Origin: a virus
Strand: one strand, 5' to 3'
IMG/VR virus record: IMGVR_UViG_3300032753_000007
Span: 1-64,000 of that record
Length of the DNA stretch: 64,000 nt
The stretch's first letter is position 1; every line of letters starts with the position of its first letter. The notes under the pieces are model-generated. The model ran no database searches and was not told where the DNA came from. It saw only the letters and a program-made list of their open reading frames with translations. Both the position numbers and the translations under genes were made by a program. Positions 4,142 to 39,259 of the stretch are shown here, piece by piece.

Positions 4142-7100
4142 CAGTAGCTTACCCTATATTCGATGTCGATCATTAAATAAACACTGTTATTGCTATTGAT
4201 ATTTGCTCCAGCAATATTTAAATAAAGACTAGGCGCCATAGTTTTGACAATTTCAGTAGATGGCCCAGTAACTAATGTTGTTAAATAACTTCCTGCGGCT
4301 GAGTTAATAGCTGCAATGCCTGTTGCTGCAATTAAATCAGTAGTGCCACTAGCTGTGCCTAAACCAACTGTTGGACTACCAGATGACGTTAAGGAGGTTG
4401 CGCCACTCGCAAAAACAACGCGGCATGTAACCATTTTAATGATAATGCTGCCGCCTAAATTATTAATTGGCAGATTTCCCAAAAAACTGTTGCTTACATT
4501 TGTAAATCGAGAAAAACTGATATTTAATGTAACGTTATTGCCATCGGGCCAAGTGTACATTAAAGTTGCTGGTGGTCTAAGAACAGTAGTAACCAACGCC
4601 GGATTATTAAATATATAGCCAGCGGCAATTAACGAGTTTTGGCATAAATTCGCTGAGCCATACAGTCGCCAAGGAATTTGACGCGCATTAGTGTTATTGC
4701 CATACATGCGAATAGGGCCACAATGACCAATTGTATAAATTGTGTTAGTCGCATTAGTGCTATTGTAATGTACGCCGTAAATGTACGTATTTGTCCCTTC
4801 AATTTTGCTTTCTATGTAATCAACATTTACACTTGATGCACTATCAGCAGCAAGTTCAACACACTCATAAGCTGCTGCGTCAGCAATGTTGACCAAGCCA
4901 TTCACCTTAGTTGACACATGCACATCGGTCATAGTGCCACTTGACAAAGCCACAGTAACTGCCGCACCACTTCCGGAGATCAATCCATAACCATTGGACG
5001 ATAATGCAAGCTGTACTGATGTTGTTGCAGCAACATATTTATTACCGTATAAACCAATATTTATAGCAACAATGCCGCCATTTACCACGCTAACAAATGC
5101 GCTCGCGCCCGTTCCTGTTGCACTATCAATAATGTTTACTGTTCCATAGCCATAAGCACTTAATGTTGGTTCACTTGTAGATCCATTTTGGCTGTAAGTG
5201 TCCCAATAGTTACCATAGCTATCTGTGCCTTTTGCAACTACATAGCCTGACCCACAATTGGTTATTGTCAACGCATTAACTTGGCCTTTCATGGCGCTTA
5301 TCATCGTGCCAATTGCGGTTACATTAGTATTGACGGGCATAACCTGATTGATAACGTTATTGTCGGTTATGTCACAGGTGTTAATGTTACCACACGAATA
5401 ATAAAATTGATTGCCACCGCAACTAATAGCCGTATTGCGCCTAACGTGGGTGCGTAAAGGACTACCGTCAACCTTTACCATACCCTGGCTAAACCCTACG
5501 CCATGGTTTTCATAAACGTCAACATCAGTGGATGAACCGTAAATCTGAATCGCCCATGCTCCGGCTTGATTTATGGCAAAAAACCAGTTGTCATGTACTT
5601 TTAATTGTTGTCCTAGCGGTGCGCCACTATTCTTACCCTTAATATTCATTGCCGCCGTATTGGTCGTGCAATCAATACCGATATTACCAGCAATATCACC
5701 AGTGTTGGCCTTAAAGTAAAAGCCTCCACAGCTATTGGTGATGTTTTCTGAATTTGCGTTTATAACAATATTATTATGAACATTGACACAATAGCCCATA
5801 ATAATAATCACTTCAGTAAACGTAGTAGTGCTGACGCTTGGGTTATAAACGTTTCTTAAAATATTGCCTTCACAAACAATATTGGTGGTTGCTGCCTGTA
5901 TTGCCGTGCCAACATCATTAGTGTCACCAATACTGATACCAAAAACATTAAACTCGCTGCCAATTACATAAGGCCAAACAGTATTGTCGCGCCCTATATT
6001 ATTGCCTAAATTGTTTAAAACAATAACTGAACCCAGCGTACACCGGACATAACACCCTTGTGAATTTTCAATGTCATTATTGCTGAAATTATATTTATCT
6101 ATATAACCAGTCCACCCATTACAAGCATCTGCCGCATAAACACCATACCCACGGTTTTGGTATAGTTTGCAATTGGTCATCGAGACATTGTCACAGTTGC
6201 CGTTATAAACAGTTGCAACGTGACTCCATTTTGCAAACTGCAACCCGTCAATTACAATTTGCGAGGTAACGCTCGAATCGGTCGATACAAAATCTACCGC
6301 ATTTCCGCCTGTACCCGGCCCGATCAATATCGTGCTGTTGCGGTCAGTGCCAATTAATCGCACATAACCCAATGTTAGTGTCGTCCAACTTTTAAAATTG
6401 TAAACCCCAGCCGCAAGCTCAATGGCATAGTTCCCTGCACTTGCCGCCGTTAATTCAGCCGCTAAAACACTGGTCTGGTCTGCGCCAGTATTAGGCACAC
6501 ATTTACTTTTTACCGCTATTTGCGTGGCGGTGGTAATTTGAGCTAAAAAATTGGCATAACCGACACTGCTCAAAATATTGCTTGCGGCGCTGTCCACAAT
6601 CGCCAGCAAATCAGCAGGTAACAGCGTGGATTTTGTCGCTGCATTGACAATAGCACCAATACTAGTTGCTGTTTCATTACCTGTGTTAATTCCAGACAGG
6701 TTTGGAGCAGCGATGTTTCCGGTAAACGTATCGCCCGCTTTGTTGGCTGGGGTATAGCCTAATGCTGATTGTTTGCTGTTAAATGCAGCATAATCAGTTG
6801 ATGATAAATAGCCTGATTGCGTAGTACTTGATTTTGGAATACTAAATACACCACCTACATTATCATAAGTTAATGGTGTTGTAACTGATAAGCTAGTTAA
6901 CCCAATGCCTCCTAATCCTGATAACGTATAAGTAGGATATGGCGGTATAGTCAATACATTATTTGTATAATTAGGATTTCCACTGCCGTTTGTAGAAATA
7001 GTAAAAGCAGGTTGATAATTTGATAATTGAGTAGTGATATATGTATAGATACCTGATACTGAAGGATACTTAGTAGTACTTGTACTATTATCAGTAATAT

Positions 7101-24089: not shown

Positions 24090-24132
24090 AAATTCAAATA
24101 TTTTTCATATGGATATTGTGTTTATGAGTAAA
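24090..24132 (+). promoter_or_regulatory. Putative early (virion RNAP) promoter, copy 1
   Basis: AAATTCAAATATTTTTCATATGGATATTGTGTTTATGAGTAAA aligns without gaps to 33885-33927 and 37871-37913. Confidence 0.7.
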
Positions 24133-24169
24133 TAGCTTTACTCGTTTCTTTAGTACCTTAGGAGGTAAC

Positions 24170-24580
24170 TTGAATAAGAAACAAATCATTGAAACGCTAA
24201 AAGCGTTTCACGCCGAAACAAAAGTGTCAAGAGTAGAAATGCTCATTGGCGCTGGATCGGCGCTTTGTTTGTATGGTCTTAGGGAAGAGACCAGTGATAT
24301 TGACGGGGCTTTACCCCGTCACTGGTTTGAGAAATTCGTGAGGGAAGGGAAGCCTACTCACGAATTTAAAATTCATGGCACCAGCGTGCCAGTGTGTGAA
24401 TGGTCAGAGGTAATTGACCTGCACATCCTGGCTGCAGGAGCCTTAAATAAAACTAGTTGGGTTGAGGGCATTCAGGTGGAAACACTTGAGGGCATCTTGG
24501 CCCACAAAGAATCTATGAAACGTTCTAAGGATCAAGAGGACATTCGCAGAATCAAAGAGCGCCTAGGCATTAAGTCCTAG
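24170..24580 (+). CDS. Small Pol-beta superfamily nucleotidyltransferase (AbiEii/DUF6036-like)
   Basis: 'GAGSALCLYGLREETSDID' (GS...DxD) and C-terminal 'K...RSKDQED'; TTG start after AGGAGG. Confidence 0.75.
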   Translation: MNKKQIIETLKAFHAETKVSRVEMLIGAGSALCLYGLREETSDIDGALPRHWFEKFVREGKPTHEFKIHGTSVPVCEWSEVIDLHILAAGALNKTSWVEGIQVETLEGILAHKESMKRSKDQEDIRRIKERLGIKS

Positions 24581-24619
24581 GCTTTATTAACCTCTTAAAA
24601 GGAGGACTCTATACTACCT

Positions 24620-24715
24620 ATGAAGGTAGTAGGCCTGCTCATTACCTTTATAGGTATCTGGGCAGCAACAGGATTATTGGGCATCCTGTTGTTTATAGCA
24701 ACATTGCCCCAATAG
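24620..24715 (+). CDS. 31-aa hydrophobic membrane peptide
   Basis: GGAGG at 24601; MKVVGLLITFIGIWAATGLLGILLFIATLPQ*. Confidence 0.55.
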   Translation: MKVVGLLITFIGIWAATGLLGILLFIATLPQ

Positions 24716-24751
24716 GCACCATGACATGGATGTCGTGGATTTATTAATCAT

Positions 24752-24772
24752 TTCCACGATGAGTGGAAGGAG
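24752..24772 (+). promoter_or_regulatory. GAUGA-pentaloop hairpin abutting SD, copy 1
   Basis: ttccac-GATGA-gtggaa-ggag, ATG at 24779. Confidence 0.8.
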
Positions 24773-24778
24773 ATTCAG

Positions 24779-25153
24779 ATGAATCTTGTAAGGCGTACAA
24801 ACTTGGACAATGCTGTAAGGGGCATGTGTCCAAGACCTGTTCAGGATGAAGGGGTCTTTTTAGCTATGGATGGCATCAATGATTTACGTATACTGGGACA
24901 AAATCCCGTGTACGTAAAGTACGCCAACCTAGACCACCTACTTAAAGTAGGAAAGGTTTGGGTTGGCAAAGCTGGGGTAGATCCTGAATGGATGGAAATA
25001 AGATCTGTTAAGGATCTACCAAAATTTGCAGTATACGTCATCGAAGACTACGATGCGTGCGCTGCAAAAATCGATGCGGCACCTTACATGCCGCAGTTCT
25101 TCTTTACTCCTACCAATTTTAGAGGTAGGAAAACACTAAAAAGAATCCGCTGA
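24779..25153 (+). CDS. Hypothetical early protein
   Basis: 124-aa ORF with AAGGAG RBS; GC-richer, hairpin-dense CDS. Confidence 0.7.
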   Translation: MNLVRRTNLDNAVRGMCPRPVQDEGVFLAMDGINDLRILGQNPVYVKYANLDHLLKVGKVWVGKAGVDPEWMEIRSVKDLPKFAVYVIEDYDACAAKIDAAPYMPQFFFTPTNFRGRKTLKRIR

Positions 25154-25166
25154 TGAAGCGGAAGGA
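25146..25166 (+). promoter_or_regulatory. GAUGA-pentaloop hairpin abutting SD, copy 2
   Basis: tccgct-GATGA-agcgga-agga, ATG at 25173. Confidence 0.8.
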
Positions 25167-25172
25167 TGTAGT

Positions 25173-25330
25173 ATGAAAAAAAAAGATTATGGAGTCTTTT
25201 GGTCAGGGTGGAACAACACCCTGATCGGTATCCATCAGGATACCACGCCCGTGTAATGCGGGCGTTGGAATTACGCAGGAAGCGTGATTCCAAAATTTGG
25301 CTATGGAGAGCCAAAGCTGCTGAAGAGTAA
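25173..25330 (+). other. Small ORF interrupted at an A9 run (27 aa in frame; 52-aa Arg-rich peptide after a -1 slip), or a structured ncRNA
   Basis: ATG-A9-G. Frame 0 stops at 25256; the -1 frame is open to TAA at 25330, just before the terminator. Six consecutive hairpins cover the region. Confidence 0.45.
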
Positions 25331-25339
25331 AACTCTTTT

Positions 25340-25392
25340 ACTATAGACTGATCTATTAATAGATCAGTCTATAGTCAGCAGTATTTTTTTTT
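25340..25392 (+). terminator. Intrinsic terminator of cassette 1
   Basis: actatagactgatcta-ttaa-tagatcagtctatagt followed by cagcagta and T9. Confidence 0.85.
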
Positions 25393-29732: not shown

Positions 29733-32189
29733 ATGAAAATCTTATCGGTATATTTACGAGGATTTAAACCATTAGCATTACGAAATATCAATGAAATCAC
29801 TATTGATTTTACAGAACAAGTCACTTTAGTATTAGGTAGAAATGGTTGTGGTAAATCATCATTATTAAGAGAATCTACACCATTGCCTGCTGTCATGGAA
29901 GACTATTATGAAAATGGTGAAAAACGAATTACATTAGAGCATAATGGCCATCACTATGAACTAGTAACTGTATTAAAGAAATCAGCTAAACACAGTTTCT
30001 ATAAAAATGGCATTGCTTTATTAGAACACGGCATTACCAGTACACAACAAGCTTTAGTAGAAAGCGAATTAAACTATACTGATTTAATACATAAACTATT
30101 AATTGGTAAACTAACATTTACTACTATGTCAGTTGGTATGCGTCGTGATATATTAACAATGATTTCACCTTTAGATTTAAATTATGCTATTGAATTACAT
30201 AATAAAATTAAAGTACAAATTAGAGATAATCAAGCTATTATAAAACACCTTAATAGTAAACGTGGTGAAATAGAGCATAAGTTAAAAGACCTTAATCAAT
30301 ATAAGTATATTGAAGAGCAAAAAACTAAATTAGAAAATGAACTATCAGTAGTCATGCCATTTGCTTTATTAAAGTCATTACCTAGTCATCAGATACAAAA
30401 AAACATTAATGAAAGTCAACACTCATTAATGAGTTTACATAAACAACTACATAAAGAAGATGGATTATCAGTGCCTACTCGAGGTATTAATAATGTTACT
30501 GACTTAACAACTTACATTGGTCAATGCAATGGTGAATTAAACGCACTACAATCACGTATAAACGATCTTTATACAGAACTTGATGGATTAGTAGGGGTAA
30601 CACAATCGCTCTCTAATAATCATTTATCTACAACTGATATAGAAAGCTATATAGCACAATGTGATGCTATTATTAACGATTTTGTTGCTATGCAAATGCC
30701 TAATGTTGATGGTAATCTATCACTCTATAGTGACCAGTTAATTACACTTTATGATAGTTTTATTTCATTAGATGACATGTTATCTAAAACACATTACTTT
30801 ACAGTAAATGAAATTAAAGACATTAATCATGCTTATAATAAAATAAGTACGTTACAAGCACATGCTATTAATGAATTAGATAGCATAAAAGAAAAAGGTA
30901 ATCATTATAAGAATAATCATAGTGCTATTGAATGTCATCAATGTAAAACTAAATTAACATTAGAAGGGCAATCAGTTGAATTAGTCATTAATGATTTACG
31001 TAATAAAGCAACTGATTTAATTAAACAAATTAAATCATATAAAGAACAATTAGACATACTCACACCACAAGTAGAACATATCCAATTATTTAACCAAGTC
31101 ACTAATAGTCTTATTACATTAAAAAATAACATTACATTACCGAGTTTATTTTGGAATGAATTTACAATAGAGTCAATATTACAATATCCATCACTATTTT
31201 CTACGCATATTGTAAGATGGCAAAAAATAATTGAACAAACAAAAATAAAAAATAAAGCATTAGCTGATAGAGAAACTTATAAAGATGCATTATCAGCTTA
31301 TCAAAAATGTGGTGGTAGTGTTAGTATTCATATTGAAAAACAAAATAAGCTATTAGATCGTTTATTATTAAAACAACAAATTATTAAAAAAGATTTAGTC
31401 ATTTGTCAACATGTATTAAAACAATATATGCATTATACAGAAATGCATGATAAACATATTCAGTTATCAAGCTATATAGACATTCAATATAAATCGTTAA
31501 TTAATGCTTATATAAAAGAAGATGCTGAAGAAAAACGATCTAAGCTTTACCAAACATTATCAGATATTAACAATATCGTTACTAAAAAAGAAACATTAAC
31601 TAATGCACTTAATGAACTCAATAAAGAATACCATGCATTGTGTGGTAATCAAGAATGTTTATTACTATTAGAAAAAGAACTATCACCTAAAACAGGCATT
31701 GTAGCTGAACAAATGTTAGCGTTTATTACTAGTTATGTTGAACAGCTTACTGATATTTGTTCTCAGGTTTTTACTTATGATTTAACTATTAATCCTTGTA
31801 ATATGGATAATGGTAAGTTGGATTATACATTTAGTGTATTAGTAAAAGATGCTTTAGTAAAAGACATAAATATTCTTAGTTCAGGTCAAGCTGAAGTTGT
31901 TAATTTAGCGTTTATGCTAGTGCTTAGACAATATTTAAATCTAATGGATTATCCTTTATATTTAGATGAAATTGGTATTCATTTTGATTCACAGCATCGC
32001 AATAATCTTTCATTGTATATTAAACAAATATTACAAGAAGGTTGTTGTAGTCAGTTGTTTATTATAGAGCACTATACGCATGTACAAAACTTTTTACCTA
32101 ATCATGATACTATTGTGTTAGATGCTACTAACATTACTGTACCCGATAATTATAATCAACATACCACCATTAAAACAGGAGTAGATTAA
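29733..32189 (+). CDS. sbcC: SbcC/Rad50-like SMC ATPase (phiKZ gp165-like)
   Basis: Walker A 'GRNGCGKS', coiled coils, zinc hook 'CHQC', signature 'LSSGQ', Walker B 'LYLDE', H-loop 'IIEH'. Confidence 0.9.
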   Translation: MKILSVYLRGFKPLALRNINEITIDFTEQVTLVLGRNGCGKSSLLRESTPLPAVMEDYYENGEKRITLEHNGHHYELVTVLKKSAKHSFYKNGIALLEHGITSTQQALVESELNYTDLIHKLLIGKLTFTTMSVGMRRDILTMISPLDLNYAIELHNKIKVQIRDNQAIIKHLNSKRGEIEHKLKDLNQYKYIEEQKTKLENELSVVMPFALLKSLPSHQIQKNINESQHSLMSLHKQLHKEDGLSVPTRGINNVTDLTTYIGQCNGELNALQSRINDLYTELDGLVGVTQSLSNNHLSTTDIESYIAQCDAIINDFVAMQMPNVDGNLSLYSDQLITLYDSFISLDDMLSKTHYFTVNEIKDINHAYNKISTLQAHAINELDSIKEKGNHYKNNHSAIECHQCKTKLTLEGQSVELVINDLRNKATDLIKQIKSYKEQLDILTPQVEHIQLFNQVTNSLITLKNNITLPSLFWNEFTIESILQYPSLFSTHIVRWQKIIEQTKIKNKALADRETYKDALSAYQKCGGSVSIHIEKQNKLLDRLLLKQQIIKKDLVICQHVLKQYMHYTEMHDKHIQLSSYIDIQYKSLINAYIKEDAEEKRSKLYQTLSDINNIVTKKETLTNALNELNKEYHALCGNQECLLLLEKELSPKTGIVAEQMLAFITSYVEQLTDICSQVFTYDLTINPCNMDNGKLDYTFSVLVKDALVKDINILSSGQAEVVNLAFMLVLRQYLNLMDYPLYLDEIGIHFDSQHRNNLSLYIKQILQEGCCSQLFIIEHYTHVQNFLPNHDTIVLDATNITVPDNYNQHTTIKTGVD

Positions 32190-33022
32190 TGACACCTAAT
32201 AGTAACTTAGTATCAGTAGGCATTGGTACTGTAGCACAAGATAAAAATGATAATAGTCGGTTTATATCTGTTTATTTATCAGAACAACATCCTTTTTATG
32301 AAGGTGATGTAACGAATGATGTTGCTGAAATAGAAAGAACGGTTATAGATGAACATGGCAATAGTACTAAACTAAATCTCTATAAAACAATGGCTGTTAA
32401 AGCTGATTGGTTAGAAGATGAAAGTAATAGAGAAACAGCACCCCATGTAAAAAAAGGTGAATCCGTTAATGTATTTGAAAAGAAAGATACAAGTGAATAC
32501 TATTGGCAGCCTCGTAAAAAGAATAACCCTACGCGTAGAGCTGAAGCCGTTACGTTTGCATGGAGTGCTGCTAGTCAAAGTAATGACATAGATATTCCTA
32601 AAACAGCAGATAATCATTATAGCGCTACTGTTGATGGTATTAATGGCCATATTACCATTACTACATCGAAAGATAATGGTGAAGTAGCTAAATACACTAT
32701 ACAAGTACAAGGTAAACAAGGACATGTTACTGTAGCAGATGATTTAGGTAATCTGATTCAACTAAACTCATCTACAAAAACAATTACATTATCTAATGGT
32801 GATAATACTTATGTTCAATTATCTGGCCCTAATATACTAGCAAATGCAAATGAAACTATTTTATTAAAAGCAAATAATATTGTATTGGACAGTAGTACCG
32901 TATCTATAACAGGTACAACACAAACTAACAATAACGTTAATGTAACCGGTGATGTTAGTGTAAGCGGTACTACTACAACAAATACAATTAATGCTTCGAC
33001 TTATATAGGGGATAATGATTAA
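32189..33022 (+). CDS. Baseplate central spike/puncturing protein (phiKZ gp164-like)
   Basis: OB-like N-terminus 'TAPHVKKGESV', beta-helical C-terminus 'VNVTGDVSVSGT'; adjacent to SbcC. Confidence 0.7.
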   Translation: MTPNSNLVSVGIGTVAQDKNDNSRFISVYLSEQHPFYEGDVTNDVAEIERTVIDEHGNSTKLNLYKTMAVKADWLEDESNRETAPHVKKGESVNVFEKKDTSEYYWQPRKKNNPTRRAEAVTFAWSAASQSNDIDIPKTADNHYSATVDGINGHITITTSKDNGEVAKYTIQVQGKQGHVTVADDLGNLIQLNSSTKTITLSNGDNTYVQLSGPNILANANETILLKANNIVLDSSTVSITGTTQTNNNVNVTGDVSVSGTTTTNTINASTYIGDND

Positions 33023-33483
33023 TGAGTACTAAAGTGATAGATAAAGAAATAGTAAGCTATAGTATTAAAAAAACAGAAGAGTTGACATTATCTGCTAAGC
33101 CTATTGTTCCTGAAGAACGTCCTGAATTATTAGAAGGCGTTACTTATAAGTTTAAAGCATTAGAGTTTGCTTATTATGTTACTATTAATGACATGGTACT
33201 AGAGAATGAAGATGGTAGTAAAACATATATTCCTTATGAAATATTTTTAAATAGTAAAAATGTAGAACACTATCATTGGATAGTGTGTACGATGCGAATT
33301 ATTTCTTTATACTTTAAAGCTAATGGCGATATAGTTAAATTAATTAGCGAATTAAAAGAAACACACGATGCTAGTGGTGGTTATTTTAAGAAAGGTGGAG
33401 GCAGAATGCCATCTGTTGTAGCTGAGTTAGGGTTTGTATTAGAAAAACACATTAATCGTTTTAAATCTGGAGATAAAAAATGA
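33022..33483 (+). CDS. nrdJb: NrdJb-like/TSCPD-type subunit of a split class II ribonucleotide reductase
   Basis: 'ERPELLEGVTYK...YVTIND...PYEIFLNSKNVEHYHWIV...ELK..HD..GGYFKKGG..MPSVVAELG' closely follows proteobacterial NrdJb. Confidence 0.8.
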   Translation: MSTKVIDKEIVSYSIKKTEELTLSAKPIVPEERPELLEGVTYKFKALEFAYYVTINDMVLENEDGSKTYIPYEIFLNSKNVEHYHWIVCTMRIISLYFKANGDIVKLISELKETHDASGGYFKKGGGRMPSVVAELGFVLEKHINRFKSGDKK

Positions 33484-33866
33484 ACATCAATCAAATCGAT
33501 CAAGTGCCTGTAGCAGTGTTGCCTAGCATATTGCCTTTAATAACTGCTGCTATTAAGTCAGATATGTTCATTAAATTATCTATTATTGATAATGAGTTAG
33601 ATAGCTTTGAATTAAAATCTAAAGAAACAGGAAAATGCCTTTATATGGATCCATTAAAGTTTTTAAATGGTGAAACACATGCAGAAGCTTTAATACCTAC
33701 ACCACGTAATATTCCTGAACATAATCCACATGCCGTATATCAACCAAACATTAATGTAAGAAAGTGGGATACTGAAGGACTAAAAATCAGTGATTATCCA
33801 CCTGGTGCATCGCCCAGTGTATCTACTGTAGCTACTAATAACTTTCCAATATCACGCGCATACTAG
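33480..33866 (+). CDS. Hypothetical protein
   Basis: 128 aa, GGAG RBS, ATGA overlap. Confidence 0.6.
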   Translation: MNINQIDQVPVAVLPSILPLITAAIKSDMFIKLSIIDNELDSFELKSKETGKCLYMDPLKFLNGETHAEALIPTPRNIPEHNPHAVYQPNINVRKWDTEGLKISDYPPGASPSVSTVATNNFPISRAY

Positions 33867-33884
33867 CATAGTAACGCAGTTTAT

Positions 33885-33927
33885 AAATTCAAATAATTTT
33901 AATATAGATATAGTTTACATGAATAAA
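33885..33927 (+). promoter_or_regulatory. Putative early promoter, copy 2
   Basis: AAATTCAAATAATTTTAATATAGATATAGTTTACATGAATAAA. Confidence 0.75.
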
Positions 33928-33970
33928 GAATAATCTTTATTAACGTATCGTTACGTTTTAACGAATTAAA

Positions 33971-33989
33971 TCCCTGATGAAGGGAAGGA
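33971..33989 (+). promoter_or_regulatory. GAUGA-pentaloop hairpin abutting SD, copy 3
   Basis: tccct-GATGA-aggga-agga, ATG at 33996. Confidence 0.8.
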
Positions 33990-33995
33990 AATAAC

Positions 33996-34331
33996 ATGAA
34001 AACTTTATATATCTGTAATGCCTTTTCTCTTCAAATGCTTGCGTTTGAAGAGAACATGATACGGGTAACCCCCGTACCATCTCCAGCCGCATGGTTGGAG
34101 AATGTCGAACCATTGTTCGACATTCTCCACTCTGCCGTCGGCCATGCCGACACAGCTGCTATATTTTCTTCCGTATTAAATATGGAAGTAAAAGAAAACA
34201 GGACTTCAATATCGATGTCGAAAGACATAGAGCTATTGGTGGGCCAGTACAGCGGCCCACGCTTGCCAGAGGGGGCAACAACGCTCCCTCAGGGAGCAAC
34301 AATTAAGTGGTTCCATGTTAAGCTAGTATAA
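33996..34331 (+). CDS. acrIII-1: AcrIII-1 / DUF1874 (STIV B116-like) cyclic tetra-adenylate ring nuclease, anti-type III CRISPR
   Basis: Family motifs occur in order: 'Y..NAFSLQML', 'SAVGHADT' (catalytic GH), 'NR..I', 'Q...PRLPEG..L'; 111 aa. Confidence 0.88.
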   Translation: MKTLYICNAFSLQMLAFEENMIRVTPVPSPAAWLENVEPLFDILHSAVGHADTAAIFSSVLNMEVKENRTSISMSKDIELLVGQYSGPRLPEGATTLPQGATIKWFHVKLV

Positions 34332-34349
34332 GCTAGCTTAACATGGTTA

Positions 34350-34410
34350 GCTAGGCATCAGTGATTAATCACTGATGCCTAGCCACTTTTCTTTTTTCTA
34401 TTTTTTTTTT
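34350..34410 (+). terminator. Intrinsic terminator of cassette 2
   Basis: gctaggcatcagtgat-ta-atcactgatgcctagc followed by T-runs; preceded by a 14-bp hairpin at 34313-34346. Confidence 0.85.
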
Positions 34411-34542
34411 CATTTACATTATATAACTATATTATTACTAAGGTAAATAACATATCTATTAAGTTTAGGAGTATAAATAATGGATACGTTTTCAAAACCT
34501 AATACCAAAGAAATCATATAATGCAGTATATCACAATAAGGA

Positions 34543-35181
34543 ATGAGTATAATGAATTTTAATTCTCAACAAGCAAAAAATAACACAATAATACATAAAC
34601 CATATACGTCTTTGTATTTAAATCAGTTATTAGCAGATAATAAGTTAATACTTAATTCGCGTAGTGAAGAAGTATTCTTCCCGTTAGAGATTGCACCTGC
34701 TAACGCATCAGTTAAAATTCCATGTCTTTATGATAAATCTATTTGTAAAAATAAACCAATATCTTCTAAATGGTTTTATAAAATGGAAGATCTGTTTAAT
34801 GATTTATTAGATGAAGAAAACTGGGATTGGGGTTTACCTTATCCTACATTAAATGCGTTTCAAGCTTTCTTTAACGTGCTGAATGATTTAGACCCACCAC
34901 GTAAACCAACTATTGGCGTTACATCTGATAGTGCGTTAACAATGTATTGGATTAATACAAGAGCTACTGTAGTCATTAAATTAAAAGACATCGATAATAT
35001 AACTATGCGGTTTAAAGTAACTAATGATGATTTAGTAGAGCTAACATCCGATTACATTAATAAAGCAGAATCATTTAAATGGATTTTTGAAATTCATAAT
35101 TTAAATGATGTATTACTGGATATTAAAATAAAGTATAATATTATACCTAATGTTTTTAAAATTGACGGTTTAATTAATTAA
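34543..35181 (+). CDS. Hypothetical protein
   Basis: 212-aa ORF. Confidence 0.6.
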   Translation: MSIMNFNSQQAKNNTIIHKPYTSLYLNQLLADNKLILNSRSEEVFFPLEIAPANASVKIPCLYDKSICKNKPISSKWFYKMEDLFNDLLDEENWDWGLPYPTLNAFQAFFNVLNDLDPPRKPTIGVTSDSALTMYWINTRATVVIKLKDIDNITMRFKVTNDDLVELTSDYINKAESFKWIFEIHNLNDVLLDIKIKYNIIPNVFKIDGLIN

Positions 35182-35193
35182 AGGAAATCAGTT

Positions 35194-35376
35194 ATGTCTA
35201 TTAAAGAAATACTTAAACTATTTGTTTATACATTAACACTATTTATTGCTGTTAATGTTTTGTTTTATATTCAATTAGCAACAGTTGATGCAGAAACACT
35301 TATTATATCAAGTATAGTTTGTGATTTGTATTTTTTAATCGTTTATCTTTATCGAGTGAGATTTCTATGGAAATGA
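35194..35376 (+). CDS. Small membrane protein (2 TM)
   Basis: 60 aa, two hydrophobic segments, AAGGA RBS. Confidence 0.55.
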   Translation: MSIKEILKLFVYTLTLFIAVNVLFYIQLATVDAETLIISSIVCDLYFLIVYLYRVRFLWK

Positions 35377-35492
35377 TTAGGTATGTAAGATTTTGTATGA
35401 TCCCTATAGTAATTGGCATAATCGCATTTTTGATTATTACTTGGGATGGATGGAGTGATGACAATGGCGACGATTACAAGCATGATATATAA
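35373..35492 (+). CDS. 39-aa single-TM peptide with acidic tail
   Basis: ATGA overlap; MIRYVRFCMIPIVIGIIAFLIITWDGWSDDNGDDYKHDI*; fills the gap before DHFR. Confidence 0.5.
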   Translation: MIRYVRFCMIPIVIGIIAFLIITWDGWSDDNGDDYKHDI

Positions 35493-35504
35493 GGAAAACA
35501 GATT

Positions 35505-37553: not shown

Positions 37554-37882
37554 GCTATATTAATAATTGGCTATATCACCATTTGCGTGATATTCAGTTT
37601 AATAAGATACTAAAGATTAATAAAAAACGCCCTAGAGTAGAAAAGAGAATGAGGAAAAGAATTAAACCTACTAAAACTAAACTATTTATTAATGTAACCT
37701 ATCGATCTTATCCTCTTATAAGGTGGTATAAAGAGCTATTAAGAGAAGAGATAGATGATATTATTTTTAATAAACAAAGACTATGGATTAAAGATAGTAT
37801 TAGAGAGCGCTATAACTGGTACAGTGGGTTACGTGCTAGAGTGATTGCTTGTAAAAATAAGGATTTTTATAAATTCAAATAA
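37550..37882 (+). CDS. Highly basic hypothetical protein
   Basis: 110 aa; 'KINKKRPRVEKRMRKRIKPTK'; its stop codon lies inside promoter copy 3. Confidence 0.55.
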   Translation: MSYINNWLYHHLRDIQFNKILKINKKRPRVEKRMRKRIKPTKTKLFINVTYRSYPLIRWYKELLREEIDDIIFNKQRLWIKDSIRERYNWYSGLRARVIACKNKDFYKFK

Positions 37883-37913
37883 TTTTCATATATATATAGT
37901 TTATATGAATAAA
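37871..37913 (+). promoter_or_regulatory. Putative early promoter, copy 3
   Basis: AAATTCAAATAATTTTCATATATATATAGTTTATATGAATAAA. Confidence 0.75.
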
Positions 37914-37957
37914 GAATAATCTTTATTTAGTTAACGTTAACTATTAACGCATTCATA

Positions 37958-37978
37958 TGCTGCGATGAGCAGCAAGGA
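37958..37978 (+). promoter_or_regulatory. GAUGA-pentaloop hairpin abutting SD, copy 4
   Basis: tgctgc-GATGA-gcagca-agga, ATG at 37988. Confidence 0.8.
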
Positions 37979-37987
37979 TATACGATC

Positions 37988-38326
37988 ATGAACAAGTTCA
38001 ATAAATTTGCCACTGACTTTTCAACAGGTTTCAAAGTGGGTTATCAAAACCCTCATCGCCTGCCAATGTATTGGGGAATGCTGAAGCTGCATTGGTACGC
38101 AGCTTTTATTAAAGCCTCATATGAGGCTAAACACTCAATTGAAAAACAAAAAGTCCCCCAGTGGGCACTGGGGATCGTGCACCGCGCTTGCGCGGTGCAC
38201 GATAAAAGAATCAACTGGGCTACCAAAAAATTTAATGGAATAGTCTTAGATGGTTGGATGGACTTCGGCTTAGAAGCGCTTAAAGCGCATCTAAGCAGAC
38301 AGATAAGGAGAGCCGAAAGAGGCTAA
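37988..38326 (+). CDS. Hypothetical early protein
   Basis: 112 aa with its own promoter and terminator; hairpin-dense CDS. Confidence 0.7.
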   Translation: MNKFNKFATDFSTGFKVGYQNPHRLPMYWGMLKLHWYAAFIKASYEAKHSIEKQKVPQWALGIVHRACAVHDKRINWATKKFNGIVLDGWMDFGLEALKAHLSRQIRRAERG

Positions 38327-38337
38327 CCTTACGTCGG

Positions 38338-38412
38338 CTTCCAGATTACTTTAAAGTAATCTGGAAGTCAATACTGCTGCAGAGATTAATCTCTGCAGCA
38401 GTATTTTTTTTT
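38338..38412 (+). terminator. Double hairpin terminator of cassette 3 (probably bidirectional)
   Basis: cttccagattact-ttaa-agtaatctggaag, then aatactgctgcagagat-ta-atctctgcagcagtatt plus a T-run; lies between convergent genes. Confidence 0.85.
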
Positions 38413-39259
38413 ATGCTAAATCTTTATTTATTTTTTTGCTTGTTTCTGATTGGGCATAGCCTACTAGCTTTACTTGAAATAATACAATAGAAAACAGTTC
38501 TAATGCTTTAGCACAGTTTAAGATATATTCTCTTAATTGTTCTAATTTAGCTTCAGGTAATTCTTTTAGTATTTGCTCATGCTCTTTACTAGAGGTTAAT
38601 TTAGTAATGTAATCTAATAGTCTTTTTAATCTAGCGGTAATTTCAGCAGTATTTACTTTAGATGCAGTATCAATTAATAAGGTAACTTGTTTAAAGCATT
38701 TCTCATAGCCTTCTACATCACCGTATAAATCAATAAATAAACGATTATGAATACCATTATCAACGGACTGATTAAAATGCTTCATTAACTCATCATTGTG
38801 TTTTTTATAATCTAATGCATGTGGATCTAAGTTAATCCATACTTTATACAATGTTTCAGGTTTACTAATACAAATAGCTAACCATTGCTCTAATGGCTTT
38901 AATAATAAGTTATCTATATTACTCAATGTATCTAATGCTTGATGTAATGTCTCTACATAAGCAGGTAAGTCTTTATCAATATAAGCAGGTGCACAAACTG
39001 TATAGGTTGTTAATGCAGTTCTACCTAATTTATTGATATTATTAACACTCGTTTTAAAACCAGTATTATCTAAAAAGTTTAATCGTAGTGCTTTGTTATT
39101 TAACGAAGCTGATTCATCTGACAATACAGAGGTTACTTTAGTAAAGAAACCTACTGCAAAGTTTTTAACAGAAGCAAAGTCAAAGCCTTCCATAGCGACT
39201 TCAACTAAATCTTCATCTGTATATCCTAGATTTTTTAAAATAGCGTTATTTAAGCTCAT
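38411..39259 (-). CDS. Probable virion head protein (phiKZ gp153-like)
   Basis: Divergent from UvsX; acidic N-terminus ending 'VAMEG', fitting the prohead protease A-x-E motif. Confidence 0.6.
   Translation of the reverse strand: MSLNNAILKNLGYTDEDLVEVAMEGFDFASVKNFAVGFFTKVTSVLSDESASLNNKALRLNFLDNTGFKTSVNNINKLGRTALTTYTVCAPAYIDKDLPAYVETLHQALDTLSNIDNLLLKPLEQWLAICISKPETLYKVWINLDPHALDYKKHNDELMKHFNQSVDNGIHNRLFIDLYGDVEGYEKCFKQVTLLIDTASKVNTAEITARLKRLLDYITKLTSSKEHEQILKELPEAKLEQLREYILNCAKALELFSIVLFQVKLVGYAQSETSKKINKDLA

Follow-up and report, generated by a model that had tools for sequence, protein, structure and literature searches.

The stretch of DNA analysed here (the window) consists of the first 64 kb (64,000 nt) of the linear viral record IMGVR_UViG_3300032753_000007 (109,752 b). 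At positions 33996-34331 of the window an open reading frame encodes a protein that belongs by sequence, fold and active-site residues to the DUF1874/AcrIII-1 family. The gene, referred to below as acr, stands alone between a promoter-like element and a terminator, in a unit composed of the following features:

33883..33921, + strand: conserved promoter-like element, ATAAATTCAAATAATTTT followed by the core ATATAGTTTAC-ATG, common to four single-gene cassettes
33925..33938, + strand: leader hairpin 1, AAAGA-ATAA-TCTTT, present also in the cassette of ORF 37988; the cassettes of ORFs 67939 and 91789 have another stem in the same place
33971..33985, + strand: hairpin abutting the ribosome-binding site (RBS), TCCCT-GATGA-AGGGA; the stems differ in the other cassettes
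33985..33995, + strand: Shine-Dalgarno sequence AAGGA and spacer, read directly from the sequence
33996..34331, + strand: acrIII-1-like gene, predicted member of the DUF1874 ring nuclease family, 111 aa, H50 putatively catalytic by homology
34350..34412, + strand: intrinsic terminator, a perfect 15-bp palindrome (34350-34383) centred on GATTAATC and followed by a T-rich run

The acr ORF starts with ATG, with the Shine-Dalgarno sequence AAGGA located 7-11 nt upstream; short minus-strand ORFs inside the gene received no support. A profile HMM search against DUF1874, which had been proposed as a check in the preliminary description of the locus, matched the acr protein to Pfam PF08960 (STIV_B116-like, formerly DUF1874; E-value 1.3e-7) with 32.1 bits (curated cut-off: 26 bits) over positions 1-87 of the 101 positions of the profile. 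The protein also matched phrog_5063 (E-value 1.1e-14), and among the structures in the PDB sequence comparison returned SIRV1 gp29 (2x4i, and 6scf with cA4), AFV3-109 and STIV B116. The DUF1874 family comprised 1,816 clusters at E<=1e-3. The AlphaFold2 monomer model, calculated from 50 homologues, has a mean pLDDT of 95.7 and a pTM of 0.88, and the top 12 Foldseek matches of this model in the PDB are without exception AcrIII-1, B116, AFV3-109 or Crn2 structures (best matches: 6scf; 2j85, TM 0.80; 2x4i; 2j6b; Csx1-Crn2), the first unrelated match being reported with an E-value of 0.2.

The preliminary description had recognized all DUF1874 motifs including a catalytic GH, and the HMMER alignment agrees, since it places G49-H50 of acr on G46-H47 of SIRV1 gp29. 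In the latter protein H47 is the general acid and R85 locks the closed dimer, whereas cA4 is contacted by R66, N8, Q81, S11, T50, S49 and N13 (preprint 10.1101/778746). The corresponding residues of acr are H50 (for H47), R89 (R85), R69 (R66), Q84 (Q81) and T53 (T50), with N8 and S11 being the same in both proteins. Only two contacts differ, namely D52 in place of S49 and Q13 in place of N13, and both of these variants occur in AcrIII-1 of the bacteriophage THSA-485A. By homology, the residues of acr that contact cA4 would be N8, S11, Q13, T53, R69, Q84 and R89. The 14 invariant columns in the alignment of 50 homologues include S46, G49, H50, D52, A54, R69, Q84, G87, R89, E92 and G93. Thus, as predicted from its sequence, the acr protein exhibits all sequence-level hallmarks of the AcrIII-1 family.

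The gene had further been described as a monocistronic unit with a terminator of its own, and this is what we find: the stem at 34350..34383 contains 8 G-C pairs among its 15 bp, its predicted fold has a z-score of -6.5, and it is followed by the T-run. The accompanying claim of a dedicated promoter motif holds for the phage-specific element at 33883..33921, but not for sigma-70-like promoters, of which the scan reported 7 sites versus 5.7 expected, i.e. not above chance. The promoter did not emerge from a genome-wide analysis of over-represented k-mers, and the region 33000-35500 has no match in Rfam. A looser pattern, AATAATT-N5-12-TATA-N3-9-ATG, occurs 6 times versus 1.05 expected, and five of the six occurrences sit just upstream of genes on the + strand.

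The promoter-like element and the leader are not confined to acr. Near-identical copies (~45-90 nt) define four single-gene cassettes, and a variant of the cassette promoter precedes a fifth, bicistronic unit:

33883-34412 of the window, + strand: cassette of acr
37869-38420 of the window, + strand: cassette of ORF 37988
67845-68360 of the record, + strand: cassette of ORF 67939
91717-92250 of the record, + strand: cassette of ORF 91789
24090-25392 of the window: bicistronic unit with ORFs 24239-24580 and 24779-25153, neither with a Pfam match

The promoter elements of the three sister cassettes begin at 37869, 67845 and 91717 (record coordinates) and lie 36-81 nt before the respective small ORFs. 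One pair of repeats, 33880-33967 and 37866-37953, is 88% identical over 88 nt. The RBS hairpins of the cassettes have a GATGA or AATGA loop on co-varying stems, and the sister terminators are palindromes of the same type, centred on GATTAATC or GTTTAAAC. The three non-acr cassette ORFs (112, 123 and 137 aa) revealed no Pfam family and at most a marginal PHROG match. Contigs in the metagenomic runs X4 and X5 break exactly at 33883, which suggests that further copies of the cassette promoter are present elsewhere in the unassembled genome.

The record has a CheckV completeness of 41%, which implies a genome of ~270 kb; the nucleus-forming phiKZ-like phages have genomes of more than 200 kb. It encodes subunits of a phiKZ-type multisubunit RNA polymerase (msRNAP; phrog_2986 and phrog_3148, E-values 9e-171 and 0), which are ~32% identical to those of cultured phiKZ-like phages; of the two sets of msRNAP genes characteristic of phiKZ-like phages, only one is found within the window. 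The product of the gene at record positions 96944..98935 (663 aa) is a homologue of chimallin, matching phrog_4795 with E-values of 1.6e-19 and 3.8e-7 over positions 24-640 of 677, and phiKZ gp54 with an E-value of 2.8e-6 at ~20% identity. A PhuZ homologue is also present (phiKZ gp39, E-value 1.4e-29, 38% identity). The combination of msRNAP, chimallin and PhuZ identifies the carrier as a divergent, predicted nucleus-forming phiKZ-like phage, as the preliminary description had proposed. Its sequences are present in lake, freshwater and pond metagenomes of several studies, and none of the sequencing runs containing the phage is an RNA run. There are no tRNA genes in the record, and megablast of the acr locus against INPHARED reported no match. 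The genes that flank acr are ordinary phage genes (SbcC-like, baseplate, RNR-like) and not a type III CRISPR locus, and Cas10 was not found in the 110-kb record. One of the neighbors, a 153-aa ORF at 33022-33483, two genes upstream of acr, matches phrog_23565 (ribonucleotide reductase, E-value 3e-16) and, weakly, a TSCPD domain, and resembles a stand-alone, fragment-like RNR module.

Scanning IMG/VR with a profile identified 217 DUF1874 stretches. Among the best 80 of these, 16 are located on contigs of at least 100 kb, of which 11 show matches to the phiKZ-type RNAP beta subunit and 4 also encode chimallin, one of the latter being a complete 223.6-kb genome with terminal repeats. In the DUF1874 tree the copies from chimallin/msRNAP phages are scattered and do not form one clade; the tree is poorly resolved and requires 4 changes, the same number as with shuffled labels, and its supported branches force at least two origins. 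None of 11 cultured phiKZ-like phages (phiKZ, 201phi2-1, Eowyn, Xoo-sp14, FLC4-3B, vB_pir03, Viktualia, Yong-MS32, LucasX, RSL2 and sm033) yielded a PF08960 match above the cut-off, with THSA-485A as the positive control (48 bits). Searches with tblastn and two DUF1874 queries reported only records of at most 53 kb, with a low sensitivity, as the known homologues of S-CBWM1 and Fnu1 were missed, and single-protein searches of IMG/VR with acr, its baseplate neighbor and the major capsid-like protein found no related loci. As to chimallin, a five-sequence alignment was too divergent to be used as a profile seed, and an alignment of three sequences has 24% identity. In one 144-kb contig (G013, behind L083), the matches to chimallin and to msRNAP beta are broken by many in-frame TGA, TAG and TAA codons, which could reflect stop-codon recoding, introns or decay.

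That at least four small-gene cassettes have the promoter/leader in common is a new observation, and the core of this element resembles that of the chimallin gene: ATATAGTTTAC-ATG of acr and ATATTATTTAC-ATG of the chimallin gene match at 12 of 14 positions. A motif resembling the acr core, TATATTATTTAC-ATG, precedes the chimallin gene (record 96780-98935) as well as the genes at 65997, 68554 and 86691, and is a candidate early-promoter consensus of the carrier phage. For jumbo phages that encode RNAPs, bioinformatic analysis can find conserved AT-rich motifs upstream of operons; wherever tested, such a motif has been an early promoter, served by the virion RNAP (vRNAP), whereas middle and late promoters cannot be found in this way (PMC7598289). 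According to this rule and given the resemblance to the chimallin core, acr is likely to be transcribed early by the virion RNA polymerase. We infer early expression from the sequence and by analogy with these relatives; in the earlier description of acr as a dedicated early gene, "dedicated" is borne out by the stand-alone unit with its conserved promoter-like element and terminator, while "early" derives from the similarity of the cores.

The same observations bear on the possibility that acr encodes an active ring nuclease that is produced too late, or in too small an amount, to be an effective anti-CRISPR, and that it confers a mild or different advantage. There is a precedent for this in SIRV2 gp37, which is closely homologous to the founding AcrIII-1, but is expressed in the middle/late phase and for that reason does not act as an Acr in native infection (10.1101/2023.01.10.523387), and of 24 ring nucleases from crenarchaeal viruses only 2 are found behind the shared early anti-defence promoter (10.1101/2023.01.10.523387). 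Furthermore, the acr core ends with ..TAC-ATG, which recalls TATG, the signature of phiKZ late promoters (PMC7598289), so that the assignment to the early promoter class is not secure. However, acr possesses a dedicated and repeated promoter/leader, common to other small accessory genes, which is a feature most archaeal homologues lack; its core resembles that of chimallin, an early gene in the characterized relatives; and the conserved motifs that can be found at all are early promoters (PMC7598289). We regard the reading of acr as a ring nuclease that is ineffective as an anti-CRISPR in infection as unlikely.

The base composition of acr is conspicuous, with 45.5% GC versus 32.7% in the record and a GC3 of 0.47 versus a median of 0.20. 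It could be taken to mark foreign DNA, i.e. a recently imported passenger without function or an assembly chimera, particularly as DUF1874 genes are richer in GC3 than their neighbors in most other large phage contigs, those with msRNAP or chimallin included. This explanation appears highly improbable to us. Contigs from three other studies span the junction upstream of acr, and run X3 reveals 0 differences across the gene; since independent contigs bridge the junction, acr did not arise by chimeric assembly. The ORF is intact and its key residues are kept, also in a diverged allele as far as it has been called (see below). High GC3 is, moreover, common to all cassette genes, which occupy ranks 1, 2, 3, 5, 6 and 7 among the 98 genes of the record, and it mostly goes along with selection of synonymous sites for RNA structure. 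For this reason, we rejected high GC3 as sufficient proof of recent transfer. A horizontal origin of acr is nonetheless likely, because its nearest relatives reach only ~50% identity and are scattered across taxa; among cellular DUF1874 proteins, the nearest are at most 52% identical and come from Patescibacteria, Clostridia and Proteobacteria, and this scatter precludes naming a donor.

Identical copies of acr are present in several lake metagenomes, whereas a pond contig (X6, 4,730 nt) documents a second allele. Over 31000-34018 it differs from the window at 52 of 3,019 nt (98.3% identity). Between 34018 and 34137 the identity drops below the threshold of 85%, and the 244 nt of 34137-34380 contain 41 differences, so that the acr allele of the pond variant is ~78-83% identical and the region 34018-34380 represents either a local hot spot of divergence or an allele replacement. 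The length of this contig, 4,730 nt, is also the one recorded for the contig of P0002, the best database match of the acr protein (78% identical over 98 aa). P0002 retains H50, D52, T53, R69, Q84 and R89; its called start is M14, and hence N8 and S11 are not comparable, and the allele may be N-terminally altered. Thus, the turnover of acr has been ~10x that of its flanks, either because the allele was replaced or because it evolved rapidly, which is the pattern expected for an arms-race gene.

The cassette genes also stand out by the predicted structure of their mRNAs. The acr coding sequence has a folding energy of -134.7 kcal/mol, with a z-score of -9.1 against dinucleotide shuffles and of -5.7 against shuffles that preserve the protein and the codon counts. 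By the latter (synonymous) shuffling, the other cassette coding sequences have z-scores of -6.3, -3.7, -0.25, -6.4 and -7.9, the last two being those of ORFs 24239 and 24779, the unit with the highest GC3 of the record (0.50 and 0.40), whereas four non-cassette neighbors range from -0.8 to +0.2. The synonymous sites of most cassette genes appear to be under selection for base pairing, and at least some of their GC3 excess is accounted for in this way. In six unrelated msRNAP/chimallin contigs (L013, L017, L020, L024, L074 and L083) the DUF1874 ORFs have synonymous-shuffle z-scores of -7.6, -4.9, -4.5, -4.3, -5.0 and -7.1, with two exceptions elsewhere in the set. As a property of the whole DUF1874 family, we considered a hyper-structured mRNA and set it aside as weakly supported, given the modest shift of the median (-2.8 versus -1.75 in neighboring genes, p 0.017). 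We speculate that the structured acr mRNA would be shielded from ssRNA-specific RNases activated by cyclic oligoadenylates (cOA) or from pairing with crRNA. In L017 (IMGVR_UViG_3300027985_001318, complete, 223.6 kb), a small ORF at 4417-4728, directly downstream of the DUF1874 gene, has a z-score of -8.8 and may be the second gene of the same kind of early/anti-defence unit.

Altogether, acr is a well-supported member of the AcrIII-1 family in an apt setting and with an unusual expression cassette. In our view it probably acts as a stand-alone ring nuclease that disarms cA4-dependent type III CRISPR of the host and is delivered by a likely early cassette. By homology, its dimer would enclose cA4 at the dimer interface and cut it, without requiring a metal, to linear A2>P, with His50 as the general acid, and the removal of cA4 would keep off the CARF/SAVED effectors of the host (Csm6/Csx1, Can1/2, Card1, Cam1 and similar). 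The phage DNA would be enclosed in the predicted chimallin shell, where neither DNA-cutting defences nor the Cas10 HD nuclease could reach it, and the relevant arm of type III immunity would then be the accessory one that depends on cOA. Type III systems with cOA-activated accessory nucleases are the CRISPR route for which an action on nucleus-forming phages has been demonstrated. The only characterized defence of this type, in Serratia, uses NucC with cA3, which AcrIII-1 does not degrade, and RNases such as the cA4-activated TtCsm6 can substitute for NucC. The ring nuclease would close the gap for cA4-based systems only, and not for cA3/NucC or cA6; as an enzyme of the acr type is cA4-specific, it is expected to disarm only hosts with cA4-responsive effectors. 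The cassette, consisting of the putative conserved promoter, the structured leader, the RBS hairpin, the ORF and the palindromic terminator, is also used for several other small accessory genes. We infer the cleavage of cA4, the timing of expression, the type III system of the host and the benefit to the phage from the primary structure; the preliminary description had likewise supposed a host with cA4-dependent type III CRISPR.

Members of the family can do other things, and the main role of DUF1874 in this phage might lie elsewhere than in blocking host type III systems: in binding or inhibiting a host protein, in countering the cA4 systems of competing mobile elements or prophages, or in modulating a cOA-responsive protein whose gene would lie in the 59% of the genome outside the record. 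Such roles have precedents in gp37, which inhibits a host lysine methyltransferase, and in the Crn2 homologues, which are cellular regulators of type III loci, and only ~41% of the genome is in hand. Against them speaks the conservation in acr of all catalytic and cA4-binding residues, while the methyltransferase-binding residues have been reported only in a few rudiviruses. Moreover, no Cas10 was found in the 110-kb record, and the genes on either side of acr are ordinary phage genes. We judge a different main role to be improbable.

A more far-reaching and tentative extension of the ring nuclease reading, to which we assign a rather low probability, is that acr fills one slot of a modular system, in which horizontally acquired counter-defence genes are plugged into a standard early cassette, their alleles are swapped between strains, and their mRNAs form near-continuous hairpins that withstand cOA-activated RNases specific for ssRNA as well as pairing with crRNA. 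In that case, ORFs 24239, 24779, 37988, 67939 and 91789, which match no known family, would be new anti-defence genes, and ring nucleases would recurrently provide nucleus-forming phages with a second layer of CRISPR evasion that has not been reported before. Such a system perhaps extends to other chimallin phages.

Our literature search found no report of a ring nuclease gene in a nucleus-forming phage. According to a pangenome study from 2024, the ChmA/PhuZ jumbo phages have no verified Acrs (PMC11448039), and a 2026 review of jumbo phages, which presents type III systems as their remaining vulnerability, nowhere mentions ring nucleases (PMC13282480). AcrIII-1 has been recorded in 36 of 28,114 phage genomes (Hoikkala et al. 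2025), and a jumbo phage may have been listed among those 36. With this reservation, the occurrence of AcrIII-1 in a nucleus-forming phage appears to be new. Nucleus-forming jumbo phages are seen as physically evading DNA-targeting immunity yet exposed to RNA-sensing type III CRISPR; the finding of an intact AcrIII-1 homologue here, and of further homologues in at least four other chimallin phages, with nothing pointing to a single origin, suggests that in natural populations the physical counter-measure is supplemented by a chemical one. This leads to the prediction that the hosts of chimallin phages carrying DUF1874 use cA4-responsive effectors. For uses of jumbo phages in the manner of phage therapy, the finding implies that resistance based on type III systems need not be a fixed weakness. 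Owing to its dedicated, probably early cassette, acr also provides a testable case for whether viral ring nucleases are true native Acrs.

Among the known systems, AcrIII-1 of THSA-485A (Tsac_2833) is the closest: like acr, it is a stand-alone DUF1874 protein of ~100 aa encoded by a tailed bacteriophage, it shares 43% identity with acr, and the two agree at every catalytic and cA4-contact position compared (NAFSLQML, GHADTA, NR, Q, R-LPEG). In E. coli, it abolished cA4- but not cA6-dependent type III immunity (Athukoralage et al. 2020, 10.1101/778746). THSA-485A, however, infects a thermophilic Firmicute, has a genome of 42 kb and lacks both a nucleus and the cassette architecture, whereas acr resides in a phage with chimallin, PhuZ and msRNAP, behind a repeated promoter/leader and with a hyper-structured mRNA. 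SIRV1 gp29 (2X4I, 6SCF) and STIV B116 (2J85), the founding AcrIII-1 structures, share the fold of acr (Foldseek probability 1.00, TM 0.70-0.80), but come from archaeal viruses and are only 21-24% identical to it. Crn2 and Csx1-Crn2 (8Y7F, 8Y7G) have the domain and the chemistry in common with the family of acr; they differ in that they adjoin cas genes or are fused to an effector, as self-limiting regulators, while acr is found on a virus without cas10 in 110 kb. The arrangement of the cassettes recalls the crenarchaeal P_ADE (10.1101/2023.01.10.523387), where one conserved promoter, strong and early, likewise precedes several dispersed small accessory or anti-defence genes. P_ADE is unrelated in sequence, host domain and RNA polymerase. 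Finally, Tad1 of phiKZ, the sole AntiDefenseFinder report in that phage, is another case of a nucleus-forming jumbo phage neutralizing an immune nucleotide second messenger; it acts as a sponge on the signals of Thoeris and CBASS and enters the cell by injection with the virion, whereas acr is a predicted enzyme directed at cA4, the signal of type III systems.
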